From an uncultured Clostridia bacterium (GTDB lineage Bacteria > Bacillota > Clostridia > TANB77 > CAG-508), in NCBI GenBank assembly GCA_948524275.1, contig CAOSLI010000002.1, positions 51,953-115,952 of the forward strand: a stretch of 64,000 nt of DNA, given 5' to 3'. Of this stretch, positions 14,186 through 18,057 are shown one piece after another (the first letter of the stretch is position 1; each line of letters begins with the position of its first letter). The position numbers and the translations under genes were made by a program. A model generated the notes under the pieces. That model saw only the letters and a list, made by a program, of their open reading frames with translations, was not told the origin of the DNA and did no database searches.

Positions 14186-14911
14186 TTACTCTGCTGTTTC
14201 TTCTCTCTTTTCTTCGCTTACTTCATTTCGTTCAACTGATAATTCATCTTCTAATTCATTTCCTTCTTTGTTAACTAACTCTAAACTTGCAATTGAAACC
14301 TCATATGCAACTCTAGGCTCTACTGTTCCATCTTCGTGTTTCTTTTCATACATTCTTGATTGAACTCTACCTATTATTTTTACTTCTGTTCCAACTTCCA
14401 TTTTAGAACAAAATCTTGCATTTCTTCCCCATGCTATACATGGTATATAGTCTGATTTATTATAAGCTCTATTTACTGCTAGAAGTATATCTGCAATCTC
14501 TCTTCCAAATGGAGTCTGTCTATATATAGGAGCTTTACATATATATCCTATTAATGTAACTTCATTTGAAACTAAATCTTTACTTGCTACAACTTCTTCA
14601 TCTTGATTTTCTAAAAATTCTATATCTTTAGCAAATACAGTTAATATTAATTTATTTTTTTCGTTTTCATAACTATTATATGATCTGAATTGTCCCTTTA
14701 CACTGATTTTTGCGTCTATTTTTAATTCGTCTTCTTTAAATAATCTTTCTGAAATTGTAATTGGTATTATATCTGCATTTCCGCTAAGTCTTGGTACACT
14801 TAGGTTAAAGCTATAAAATTTCTCGCCATATATTTCATGACTAAATTTCTTCTCCTCTGTAATTTTTCCTACTAATACTAAATTATTGTTCTCTAAAAAA
14901 TTTGTTTCCAA
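14186..14911 (-). CDS. SSB-like protein with two tandem OB folds and an acidic C-terminal tail
   Basis: Both halves follow the SSB pattern (V.L.G.I....F..NL.V.R.......I.....A.........G..V...G......Y). Acidic tail EDELSVERNEVSEEKREETAE lacks the terminal DIPF. Confidence 0.5.
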   Translation of the reverse strand: METNFLENNNLVLVGKITEEKKFSHEIYGEKFYSFNLSVPRLSGNADIIPITISERLFKEDELKIDAKISVKGQFRSYNSYENEKNKLILTVFAKDIEFLENQDEEVVASKDLVSNEVTLIGYICKAPIYRQTPFGREIADILLAVNRAYNKSDYIPCIAWGRNARFCSKMEVGTEVKIIGRVQSRMYEKKHEDGTVEPRVAYEVSIASLELVNKEGNELEDELSVERNEVSEEKREETAE

Positions 14912-15676: not shown

Positions 15677-16045
15677 TTATGTCTTTTTTATATATTTTCT
15701 ATACCAATAAATTGCTTCATATATTGCAATTAATAGCAAAAATACTCCAAATATTTTCTTTAATATTTTTGTTTCCATATTAACTGCGATATTAGATCCT
15801 ATAGCAGCTCCAAATATACCTGCAATTGTTAGTGGTATTGCGATTTTCCATCTTATGTTTTTATTTTTTATATTAACAATTGTTGCTGAAACTGAAGTTG
15901 GAATAAAGAAAATTATATTAGTCGATTGAGCTATCTTTTGATTTATATCCGAGAAACACGTAAGTATTGTAATAAGAATGCTTCCTCCGCCCATTCCCAT
16001 TCCACTTACAATTCCAGAAATAATCCCTATTAGAATATTTACCAT
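15677..16045 (-). CDS. sulfite exporter TauE/SafE family, C-terminal half-type subunit
   Basis: GMGGGSILITIL motif, 4 TM segments, ATGGTAA overlap with the upstream partner. Confidence 0.7.
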   Translation of the reverse strand: MVNILIGIISGIVSGMGMGGGSILITILTCFSDINQKIAQSTNIIFFIPTSVSATIVNIKNKNIRWKIAIPLTIAGIFGAAIGSNIAVNMETKILKKIFGVFLLLIAIYEAIYWYRKYIKKT

Positions 16046-16461
16046 TTATTAAATATTAGTATTGCGGCATATATTAGAAAAATTATAAATATTAAAACTA
16101 AATATTTATCTTGAATCTTTTTTAAAAGATTTGCTCCTATAATGCCACCTACTATGCCTCCTATTCCACAAAGTACACCCAATTTCCAGTTGATTTCGCC
16201 TGCCATTTTATAAAAAATCATACTTGTTAAAGTCATTGGCAATATACTAAAAAGTGCAATTGCTCGTGCTTCTTTTTCACCTGTATGTATTAAGTATACA
16301 AGACCTGGTACAGCAATTAAGCCCCCTCCTGAGCCAAATAATCCACTTAAGAACCCAGTAAAAATTCCTAAAATTATAATCTTCGCAGTTACCATTTTTT
16401 CTTTATTTGCAACCAAATTATCATTATTAATTGATTTATTTACTTTGTTTTCTCTTTTCAT
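16039..16461 (-). CDS. sulfite exporter TauE/SafE family, N-terminal half-type subunit
   Basis: GGGLIAVPGLVYL motif, 4 TM segments, translationally coupled to the 15677 gene. Confidence 0.7.
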   Translation of the reverse strand: MKRENKVNKSINNDNLVANKEKMVTAKIIILGIFTGFLSGLFGSGGGLIAVPGLVYLIHTGEKEARAIALFSILPMTLTSMIFYKMAGEINWKLGVLCGIGGIVGGIIGANLLKKIQDKYLVLIFIIFLIYAAILIFNKW

Positions 16462-16575
16462 ATATTTATTTTTTCACATTTTAATTATTTTATTCTAAAT
16501 TTATTGCAAACTAAATATCGTAATGCTATAATAAAGTAGAATTAATCTAAAGATAAGGAGAATGGAAAATAATAC

Positions 16576-16974
16576 ATGACAGTTTTAGCAATAATATTTA
16601 TTTTGTTAATTTTTATAATACTACTAATTTCGACGTCTTTCATCCAAATGCAAAATGCTGGCATTAAAGTTAAAGACTTTATGTCATTTATTAAGGCAAA
16701 TGAAGACTTAGATAGACTTTCTGTGTTTGCTAAGAAATATGACAAAATGTCTCCACAAGAACAACTCATATATTTGATGGAAGCAGAAAAAATGTTTGAT
16801 GCATTTGATAAAATTCCATCAAGTGTTTGGGAAGATGAACATGGTAAATATAACGAAGTTTTAGATACTTATAAAAATATAAAGGTAATGAGATGGAATG
16901 AAGCTCAGTCTTATGAGCTTTCTAAAAATATAAAAAGAATCAAGCCAAAAGAAATAAATATAGATAATGCATAA
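16576..16974 (+). CDS. hypothetical protein with N-terminal TM anchor
   Basis: ORF with one N-terminal TM helix. No conserved motifs recognised. Confidence 0.45.
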   Translation: MTVLAIIFILLIFIILLISTSFIQMQNAGIKVKDFMSFIKANEDLDRLSVFAKKYDKMSPQEQLIYLMEAEKMFDAFDKIPSSVWEDEHGKYNEVLDTYKNIKVMRWNEAQSYELSKNIKRIKPKEINIDNA

Positions 16975-17008
16975 AAGGAGGGGACTGTCGTCCCCTCCTT
17001 TCTTTGGA
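16974..17008. terminator. GC-rich bidirectional hairpin terminator (AGGAGGGGA-ctgtcg-TCCCCTCCT)
   Basis: 9-bp GC stem with a T-run on plus and an A-run upstream (T-run on minus). Confidence 0.7.
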
Positions 17009-17321
17009 GTTTAGTCCGCTGCACATGCAACTCGGACTCCTTCATCGTCGAATGTAGATATTCCGTTGTAGGCGTGATAGTGTAAATCTTTTTCCCAAAC
17101 ACGGACATCTTCAGCGTCAAATCTCTTTTTACTCACACAGCTGCCACCACAATGTCGATTCCAGTCTTAGCAATCATCCGTGCATAGTCAAGCGATAATG
17201 CCTGAGGTATTGCTGAACATGTCTTGTTAGCCAACCAAGCATCGCCGATGCTCTTTATAGCCATATCATACGCCTTTACCTTTTCAATGTACGCTGTCTT
17301 TCTCATGTTGTTTTCCTCCAT
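17004..17321 (-). pseudogene. frameshifted paralog of the 17515-17898 gene (62-aa ORF plus 42 codons in the -1 frame)
   Basis: The N-part (..DYARMIAKTGIDIVVAAV) aligns to copy 2 (..FEDAQMIAKQGRSVVIV). The C-part in another frame (..EKDLHYHAYNGISTFDDEGVRVACAAD*) aligns to copy 2's C-terminus. The promoter region is also duplicated. Confidence 0.5.
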
Positions 17322-17479
17322 AAATACTTAATTATTTTGAGTCTCGTCATGCGACCCTTACATATATTATAGCATTAAACGCGTGTTTTGTCAAATAATG
17401 CCTTTATGTTTTACATAATTTTATATTGTTTACTTCTTTTCATTTATCTTCTTTTGATTCAACATTATTAACATTGCAA

Positions 17480-17512
17480 AAGGGAGGACTGTTGCCCTCC
17501 CCCTGCTTTGGA
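17480..17512. terminator. GC-rich hairpin, paralogous to the 16974-17008 element
   Basis: AAAGGGAGGACTGTTGCCCTCCCCCTGCTTTGG is similar to the hairpin downstream of copy 1. Confidence 0.55.
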
Positions 17513-17514
17513 TT

Positions 17515-17898
17515 TTAGCTTGCGACTACAGTCGCATTCTCGATGGTATAATTAGTGTCTATTGTACCATTTTCGCTGATGCAGTGATCTTCGACAGTTA
17601 AACAGTCTCCGTCAACTAACGCGGTAAGAACTGTGTTCTTACCAAGATAAGTAACTCTTCCATTTCTCCTGTCAGTCCATGCCACTGTTGTAGTTGCGGA
17701 TTCGCTACCGTTATTTACAATTACAACAGATCGGCCCTGCTTTGCAATCATCTGCGCATCTTCAAATGACAGTAATCTATCTGTGGCAGTAATAAACAAC
17801 CCTATACGTTCTGCATCCTCGATGCACTGCATTACTTTGTTTAATGCCTCAGCCTGCATTCTCTCATCTGCTTCAATGTTTAATCTTGTTTTCTCCAT
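17515..17898 (-). CDS. hypothetical protein (127 aa), about 41 % GC, intact copy of a tandem pair
   Basis: Intact ORF with atypical GC content. The upstream about 100 bp is about 80 % identical to the region upstream of copy 1. Confidence 0.55.
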   Translation of the reverse strand: MEKTRLNIEADERMQAEALNKVMQCIEDAERIGLFITATDRLLSFEDAQMIAKQGRSVVIVNNGSESATTTVAWTDRRNGRVTYLGKNTVLTALVDGDCLTVEDHCISENGTIDTNYTIENATVVAS

Positions 17899-18057
17899 GG
17901 TGTATCCTCCAAAAATGTATTAGATTTTGAGTGCGTCATGCTACTCTTATAGTTTATTATAACATTCACTATAGTTTTTGTCAAATAATACCTAAACATT
18001 TTACATAAACTCTCTAAGTTTTTTTATTGGAGTTTAAAGAATAAGCCTTTACCTAAA

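Follow-up and report, generated by a model that had tools for sequence, protein, structure and literature searches.

The 64,000-nucleotide stretch of DNA analysed here (the window; part of contig CAOSLI010000002.1, assembly GCA_948524275.1, from an uncultured Clostridia bacterium) carries, next to clpC, a pair of small GC-rich genes, which we call copy 1 and copy 2, and, together with their expression signals, cassettes. We read the pair as two paralogous, monocistronic small-protein genes that are built for high autonomous expression and encode non-enzymatic binding or accessory products, with copy 1 being a pseudogene, and give this overall reading a probability of roughly 80%. The reading draws on the shared architecture of the two units, on alleles and orthologues of both genes from related contigs (L001 to L021), and on structure prediction for the proteins and the mRNA ends.

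Two tandem units and the deletion in copy 1

The locus consists of two tandem transcription units (16974-18008, minus strand) with promoters 590 bp apart, flanked on one side by the stop codon of clpC (an 811-aa open reading frame, ORF, at 18058-20493), which lies upstream of both cassettes and is also on the minus strand, and on the other by the stop codon of a convergent gene (16576-16974, plus strand) encoding a 132-aa single-pass membrane protein. In both units the parts follow the same order: a TTATGTAAAA box, a promoter, a leader of about 55 nt with a 5' hairpin, GGAGG, a small ORF, a post-stop motif, which in the window units reads (A/C)TCCAAAG and stands immediately 3' of the stop codon, and a GC-rich terminator hairpin (Table 1). 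Both promoters are TTGACA-17-TATAAT sequences with the TG extension, their -35 hexamers starting at 17394 and 17984, and they were the only sites with a 12/12 match to the sigma-70 consensus found by a promoter scan of 16400-18600. The TTATGTAAAA box is present in just three exact copies in the window, two of them at this locus, and precedes nearly every cassette across the related loci. The terminator hairpin of copy 1 serves bidirectionally, being shared with the convergent membrane-protein gene, and falls just outside the range of 17004-18057 that the initial annotation had given for the duplication, the rest of that observation being sound.

The initial annotation had described two diverged copies of a small GC-rich gene in tandem, and pairwise alignment of the units bears this out. 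The promoter and leader regions of the two copies share 85 of 114 aligned bases (75%; score 44, compared with -17.8 +/- 5.3 for shuffled sequences, or about 11 standard deviations), and the regions from stop codon to terminator share 30 of 44 (68%; score 16, compared with -14.5 +/- 4.5), with the best block between the units, TTTTGTCAAATAATGCC..., reaching 85% identity across 33 nt. The coding regions are far more diverged than these flanks; the proteins are only about 25% identical, and BLASTP of one against the other gave no match. Comparison of profiles built from three orthologues for each copy (hhalign) aligned the two copies over 75 columns, with a probability of 95.7% and an E value of 8.5e-9. 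Judged by these alignments, the two proteins are true but distant paralogues.

Copy 2 is, as initially described, an intact gene of 127 aa (17515-17898, minus strand). The split layout reported for copy 1 is likewise present in the window, with 57 codons at 17133-17306 and 41 codons in the -1 frame at 17011-17136 (both minus strand), and the homologous protein had been proposed to require a -1 frameshift at the TGA at 17133. The alleles of other contigs contradict this proposal. Of nine contigs found by exact look-up of copy 2 (P0001), six (L001-L006) were compared with the window. In two of them, L004 and L005, which belong to the same species and have an identical copy 2, copy 1 is a single open ORF of 134 codons, and in the related species represented by L007-L010 and L013-L019 it is uninterrupted at 134-135 codons; the split into 57 + 41 codons recurs in L001 (GCA_950022725.1), L002 (GCA_948845805.1), L003 (ENA) and L006 (Logan). 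When aligned with the intact alleles, the window allele proves to be missing the 109 bp that lie between GGCAGCTG and GGCTGCTG. In an exact-string check of the seven same-species sequences, the deletion junction was identical in the window, L001, L002, L003 and L006, and both intact junctions were present in L004 and L005. Across 1090 bp, the deletion and intact alleles differ by only one single-nucleotide polymorphism. The missing segment amounts to 36 codons plus one base and takes out residues 56-92, corresponding to three strands in the predicted structure; a fused copy 1 product would be 36 residues short. Because the identical 109-bp deletion is found in the window and in four other assemblies, and the ORF is intact in L004, L005 and the related species, copy 1 is, on this comparison of alleles, a recent, polymorphic (segregating) pseudogene resulting from a microhomology deletion, with both alleles coexisting in the species.

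Expression of copy 1 through a programmed -1 ribosomal frameshift at the TGA would account for the homologous C-terminal segment in the -1 frame and for the overlapping stop codon (GTGTGA), a layout reminiscent of dnaX and the IS3-family transposases, in which two overlapping frames jointly encode parts of one homologous protein. Unlike these genes, copy 1 has no slippery site, as the junction GCA GCT GTG TGA holds no heptamer of the form X XXY YYZ, and its two-frame layout is unconserved, the orthologues and the two same-species contigs having a single frame. The change of frame was made by the deletion itself, and the fused product would be without the 36 core residues that supply three strands of the model; we put the likelihood of recoding close to nil. 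An error of sequencing or assembly, with copy 1 truly intact in this genome, is another conceivable source of the frame change, given that assemblies of metagenome-assembled genomes (MAGs) can collapse repeats and that the junction has 4-8 nt of microhomology. The same junction was, however, obtained from different samples in four independent assemblies (two NCBI MAGs, one ENA and one Logan assembly), the intact form was assembled from two other samples, and the deleted 109 bp are a unique segment with no collapsible repeat, leaving an artefact with an exceedingly small chance. What appeared to be a recoding signal is thus better annotated as a strain-level deletion, copy 1 being a pseudogene in the window genome and, in sister strains, an intact gene for 134 aa.

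Coding status, protein and composition of the cassettes

The pattern of substitutions indicates that the cassette genes are protein-coding and fast-evolving. Between the window species and that of L007, substitutions at codon positions 1, 2 and 3 number 25, 19 and 47 in copy 2 and 22, 18 and 30 in copy 1, and the ratio of nonsynonymous to synonymous divergence (dN/dS; Nei-Gojobori) is 0.30 and 0.31, respectively. Values of dS (0.69 for copy 2 and 0.45 for copy 1) lie beside 0.23-0.73 in the flanking genes, and dN, at 0.14-0.20, is several-fold higher than in the neighbours (0.02-0.07). Copy 2 orthologues are 66-77% identical, and the ORFs are open at 118-161 codons in all eleven cassettes seen. 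The copy 2 orthologues of L013 (341-766) and L014 (707-1132) are 141 aa long, owing to an in-frame tandem duplication of 14 codons in the N-terminal helix (NIEADEKRCAEAF / LNIEADKKRYAEAF). Selection on the protein seems to be diversifying or relaxed, and the protein itself seems dispensable.

These data also bear on whether the units could be GC-rich structured non-coding, or dual-function, RNAs with incidental ORFs. GC-rich islands within an AT-rich genome, a strong promoter and terminator, unit ends that are conserved better than the middle and folding z-scores of -4.2 and -2.7 would all fit such RNAs. Against them stand the third-position bias and a dN/dS of 0.3, ORFs kept open down to about 25% protein identity with indels in frame, a properly spaced GGAGG before each ATG, a dS not lower than in the neighbours, and confident, congruent models of both paralogues from AlphaFold2 (AF2). 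There is no Rfam match either: the whole window at gathering threshold gave two tRNAs only, and the locus region at E values up to 10 only chance-level matches, centred on the terminator. We consider an RNA function with incidental ORFs very improbable, and retain the reading of protein-coding genes.

From alignments of eight sequences, AF2 predicted the proteins with a mean local confidence score (pLDDT) of 74.5 for copy 2 and 79.1 for copy 1. The topology is common to both paralogues, comprising a long N-terminal helix, a strand-helix-strand unit, a meander of five to six strands and about 20 low-confidence C-terminal residues. Only M1, I26, A48, A52, T70, Y84 and A126 are invariant across ten members, a set of residues that favours a scaffolding or binding role over an enzymatic one; with modest confidence, we regard the product as probably a small soluble, non-enzymatic binding or accessory protein. 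The family was initially reported as unknown, and this stands: searches of Pfam, PHROGs, PADLOC and NCBIfam gave nothing above threshold for the cassette proteins, a sequence search of the PDB returned only matches with E > 0.04, to a Pyr_redox-like beta-alpha-beta segment, and a fold search with the models found no structural match. The disordered tail has a single conserved element close to the C-terminus, the hydrophobic/Ala motif [VAL]-[VRM]-[VLIA]-A, which may, speculatively, be a docking or degron-like peptide. As a Clp degron it was rejected as a mere resemblance, the termini being VVAS, VVAI, AAD, AAG and VRLA, not LAA.

A hint of an enzyme came from serine peptidases, and the proteins might be miniature or degenerate members of the S41/S49 (ClpP/crotonase-fold) type that are functionally tied to ClpC. 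Residues 50-91 of copy 2 match Pfam Peptidase_S41 (PF03572) with an E value of 6.8e-5, three of ten members match Peptidase_S49 (PF01343) at 5e-4 or weaker, a local helix-strand-loop segment (A..IAKQG..VVV..G) scoring slightly below threshold, and the positions aligned happen to read GSESA...GK in copy 2 of the window. Yet the S41 score of 23.0 stays under the gathering threshold of 24 bits and concerns one of the ten members, with about 42 of 165 profile positions matched, or roughly one quarter of the domain. The putative catalytic Ser and Lys vary even among copy 2 orthologues (SES becoming LEP or REA), so that there is no invariant Ser or Lys and no catalytic dyad, and AF2 places a strand where the nucleophile helix would be expected, giving a different topology with no ClpP/crotonase-like fold and no structural match. 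Since the Pyr_redox beta-alpha-beta-meander of dihydrolipoyl dehydrogenase is matched equally weakly, the S41/S49 similarity is probably that of a generic motif, and a peptidase is extremely improbable.

In polymorphic-toxin immunity arrays and defence hotspots, a fixed chromosomal site holds a changing set of small genes of accessory or immunity-like type. The cassettes resemble such arrays in encoding small cytosolic proteins, in occurring as tandem paralogues whose copy number and type differ between close relatives, and in their fast protein evolution, frequent inactivation and atypical composition. They differ in that the locus has no nearby toxin, secretion or defence gene, and in that every cassette gene comes with a conserved promoter, leader and terminator of its own, an arrangement atypical of arrays. 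A role in conflict or recognition, of the immunity-like kind, is put forward only tentatively, the odds being somewhat against it, and a functional link of the cassette protein to ClpC is doubtful.

The composition of the genes is atypical, as the initial annotation had observed. The GC content is 42% in copy 2 and 45% in intact copy 1, compared with 30.1% in the window; all cassette coding sequences have a GC of 0.41-0.47 and a GC at third codon positions (GC3) of 0.37-0.56, compared with a GC3 of about 0.17 (range 0.13-0.21) in host genes. With a GC3 of 0.38, copy 2 has the highest value among 46 ORFs examined in the window (others 0.13-0.33). The further claim, that the genes appear foreign, was only partly borne out, as they are syntenic across species, have a dS like that of their neighbours and lack a donor, phage or plasmid relative. 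Recently acquired cargo of a phage, plasmid or integrative and conjugative element would agree with the raised GC3, with the variation in copy number and with a transposase gene beside the cassette in L012. It is improbable nonetheless, as at least five related species carry cassettes at this locus, dS is on a par with the flanking genes, promoter and leader have an AT-rich composition like that of the host, and no relative was found in INPHARED, PLSDB, IMG/VR or other protein collections. Conserved synteny and a dS (0.45-0.69) within the range of the neighbours thus identify the cassettes as long-term residents and make a recent transfer unlikely. An ancient acquisition by the ancestor of the clade is compatible with these data, and the high GC could stem from such an old transfer with incomplete amelioration, or be maintained by selection or biased conversion.

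Other parts of the window also have a raised GC. A 243-aa GC-rich ORF without Pfam match (5978-6709, plus strand; GC 41%, GC3 0.31) is preceded by a separate extended -10 promoter (TGGTATAAT, at about 5878) and equipped with a strong ribosome-binding site and a terminator hairpin at about 6727-6746. The GC-richest patch of the window (37150-37650; 0.43-0.46 in 300-nt windows) lies inside an 830-aa ORF (36684-39176, minus strand), again without Pfam match. GC3 is also raised in genes for a BspA-type leucine-rich-repeat protein (3047-3703, plus strand; 0.30) and for a DUF5052 protein with a lipoprotein-like N-terminus (59100-59735, plus strand; 0.33).

Distribution of the family and variability of the site

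Relatives of the two proteins are few. A word-indexed search of 5.8 billion clusters retrieved three sequences per paralogue, and a full HMMER search of 1.84 billion representatives contributed just P0007, P0008, P0009 and P0011, together with two low-complexity false matches. Scans of GTDB species representatives with protein and DNA patterns found no family member, a DNA-pattern scan of JGI metagenomes gave 0 matches, and in IMG/VR the DNA-pattern scan gave 0 matches and the protein scans 0 relatives. The search for homologues in phages and plasmids suggested with the initial annotation was run by tblastn, with both proteins against INPHARED and with copy 2 against PLSDB, and gave nothing beyond one chance-level match (E 0.3); a fold search of BFVD found no relative.

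All members with visible flanks sit at this locus and carry the same promoter, leader and 3' motif. The 132-aa gene follows downstream wherever the contig reaches it, and the upstream neighbour is clpC throughout, except in L012. Two cassettes are present in the window, L007, L013 and L014; L020 has a single cassette between clpC and the 132-aa gene, and L021 has one before the contig ends. The hosts are closely related, their ClpC C-termini being 86-96% identical with a dS of 0.6-1.0, yet identity between cassette types is no more than about 25-30%, and the site is therefore hypervariable. On the evidence of these searches, the family is lineage-restricted, belonging to one narrow clostridial clade and one chromosomal site.

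In L012, a UPF0236-family transposase gene (77-1519) stands directly upstream of the lone cassette, where other species have copy 2, which suggests that mobile elements have been active here. In the segment of the window that separates the stop codon of clpC from the promoter of copy 2 (18022-18054), AAACTCCAATAAAAAAAC is like the cassette post-stop motif, without a hairpin, and AGGTAAAGGCTTAT resembles a stretch within copy 1; these repeats may be a relic of another cassette end, or a product of chance.

The mRNA ends and the meaning of the locus

The expression signals, i.e. the promoter, leader and 3' end, are conserved better than the coding sequence they serve. Identity between species is 93-100% in the 3' motif and terminator, about 85% in the promoter and leader, 76-83% in the coding sequence and 63-67% in the intergenic spacer. 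The leader stem occurs in several variants, namely GGGUC/GACUC in the c1-type cassettes (the type of copy 1), GAGU-x-GC/GC-ACUC with a bulge in the c2 type (that of copy 2) and L021, and AGUUGC/GCAAUU in L020, and the loop AUGAC is kept in all cassettes (as AUGAAC in L020). In Firmicutes, mRNA is stabilised against RNase J1 by a stem-loop placed only a few nucleotides from its 5' end (PMC3997798). The AUG of the leader loop (CAUGAC) lies about 13 nt from the predicted transcript start. It was rejected as the start of an upstream ORF, having no Shine-Dalgarno (SD) sequence and opening peptides of varying length and frame (5, 5, 15 or 19 codons, or in frame with the main ORF in L021). A CtsR operator in the leader was also rejected, as the GGTCAAA heptad repeat with 3-nt spacing is absent by reading.

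At the other end of the mRNA, the post-stop motif (A/C)UCCAA(A/G) is present in all cassette types and is complementary to the UUUGGAG of the ribosome-binding region. In minimum free energy (MFE) folds of the whole mRNA of both units (z-scores -4.2 and -2.7), the motif pairs with the SD region and closes the molecule. In the two cassettes of c1 type that have UUUUUGGAGG (L007, L013), the predicted duplex reaches -11.4 kcal/mol, a value equalled by none of the shuffles; it reaches -7.7 kcal/mol, equalled by 0.8% of shuffles, in the c1 of the window species, and -9.6 and -9.0 kcal/mol in L020 and L021 (p about 0.04). Pairing of the 5' and 3' untranslated regions (UTRs) has been described for the mRNAs of icaR in Staphylococcus aureus and hbs in Bacillus subtilis (PMC3868564, PMC5737220). 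The cassettes share with these a monocistronic mRNA for a small protein, with a strong SD sequence and structured ends, and a pairing that appears in the predicted minimum-energy fold of both paralogues; as in icaR, a 3'-UTR motif is complementary to the SD sequence (UCCCCUG in icaR, UCCAAAG against UUUGGAG in the cassettes). In contrast to icaR and hbs, to which they have no sequence relationship, the cassettes have a 3' UTR of about 10 nt from stop to terminator and a predicted pairing of 6-9 bp, which is weak in copy 2.

The gene pair stands between clpC and the convergent membrane-protein gene, and in the proposed mechanism the AT-rich box, the perfect extended -10 sigma-70 promoter, GGAGG and the strong terminator would together provide high expression independent of the neighbours. 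The leader hairpin, close to the predicted start of the mRNA, belongs to a type that shields Gram-positive transcripts from 5' exonuclease and may do so here, and pairing of the post-stop motif with the ribosome-binding region would couple translation to mRNA stability, as in icaR or hbs. A bolder version sees a cassette site with a constant expression module (box, promoter, 5' hairpin with invariant CAUGAC loop, 3' anti-Shine-Dalgarno motif and terminator) in which a small GC-rich protein of no known fold relative is swapped or diversified among close relatives, the whole being a novel module for recognition or immunity, or one linked to ClpC, with mRNA ends that act as a conserved 5'-3' regulatory device; we give this version a slim chance.

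Several observations weigh against the reading given at the outset. The transcription start sites, the role of the leader hairpin and the 5'-3' pairing are predictions; the c2-type duplex, including that of copy 2, reaches only -6.6 kcal/mol, no better than shuffles, and no compensatory changes support the pairing, because both partners hardly vary. The terminator scan missed both hairpins, whose stems of 12 bp (copy 1) and 8 bp (copy 2) are followed by UUUUAU and UUUUGC, its T-run rule flagging neither. No partner, toxin or defence gene is visible around the locus, PADLOC being negative, and the high GC3 of the cassettes is unexplained. The linkage to clpC is seen within one clade only and therefore counts as a single observation.

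Table 1 Parts of the two transcription units, with positions in the window
Feature	Position	Strand	Basis
Copy 2 AT-rich box TTATGTAAAA, about -59 to -50 (UP-element position)	17999..18008	-	conserved in related loci
Copy 2 promoter TTGACA, 17 nt, TGnTATAAT	17956..17984	-	12/12 consensus
Copy 2 leader hairpin GAGU(A)GC-AUGAC-GCACUC near predicted mRNA 5' end	17929..17946	-	MFE fold
Copy 2 coding sequence, 127 aa (P0001), intact; GGAGG 17906-17910	17515..17898	-	ORF, orthologues, dN/dS, AF2
Copy 2 post-stop motif AAUCCAAAG, complementary to UUUGGA of ribosome-binding region	17506..17514	-	kept in every cassette type
Copy 2 terminator hairpin GGGAGGGC AACA GUCCUCCC, then UUUU	17478..17503	-	read directly; 93% identity between species
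Copy 1 box TTATGTAAAA	17409..17418	-	conserved
Copy 1 promoter TTGACA, 17 nt, TGnTATAAT	17366..17394	-	12/12 consensus
Copy 1 leader hairpin GGGUC-GCAUGACGA-GACUC	17339..17357	-	MFE fold; invariant in c1-type cassettes, three species
Copy 1 5' remnant, 57 codons + stop (residues 1-55 of intact 134-aa protein + 2 junction codons); GGAGG 17315-17319	17133..17306	-	ORF list, allele alignment
109-bp deletion junction (GGCAGCTG; exact breakpoint ambiguous owing to microhomology GCTG)	17138..17145	-	alignment with L004, L005, L007
Copy 1 3' remnant, final 41 codons, -1 frame relative to 5' remnant	17011..17136	-	ORF list, allele alignment
Copy 1 post-stop motif ACUCCAAAG, anti-Shine-Dalgarno-like	17002..17010	-	100% conserved between species; pairs with UGGAG in MFE fold
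Copy 1 terminator hairpin, 12-bp perfect stem, loop GACA	16974..17001	-	inverted repeat, fold, conservation

The gene content of the window includes SpoVT, RecD2, McsA, McsB, ClpC, MraZ and RsmH, which, with a GC of 30%, is in keeping with a spore-forming Clostridia bacterium. A TauE/sulfite-exporter-like gene (15677-16461, minus strand) is split into two overlapping ORFs of 140 and 122 aa; as every related locus shows the same split, the ORFs are probably a real pair of genes and not a pseudogene. Further, a gene at 14186-14911 (minus strand) encodes a 241-aa protein in which the OB-fold of single-stranded DNA-binding protein (SSB) covers only residues 116-209; the product is longer than canonical SSB, its N-terminal half is uncharacterised and its tail is acidic.

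The cassettes represent a hitherto undescribed family of small proteins that lacks relatives in sequence or fold, confined to one clade and one site, in which a GC-rich composition is retained within a 30% GC genome and the expression signals are more constrained than the coding sequence. If the pairing of the 5' and 3' UTRs is true, the cassettes would be a compact natural clostridial example of that mode of control. The cassette promoter, leader and terminator could, in addition, serve as a strong expression module in AT-rich Firmicutes.

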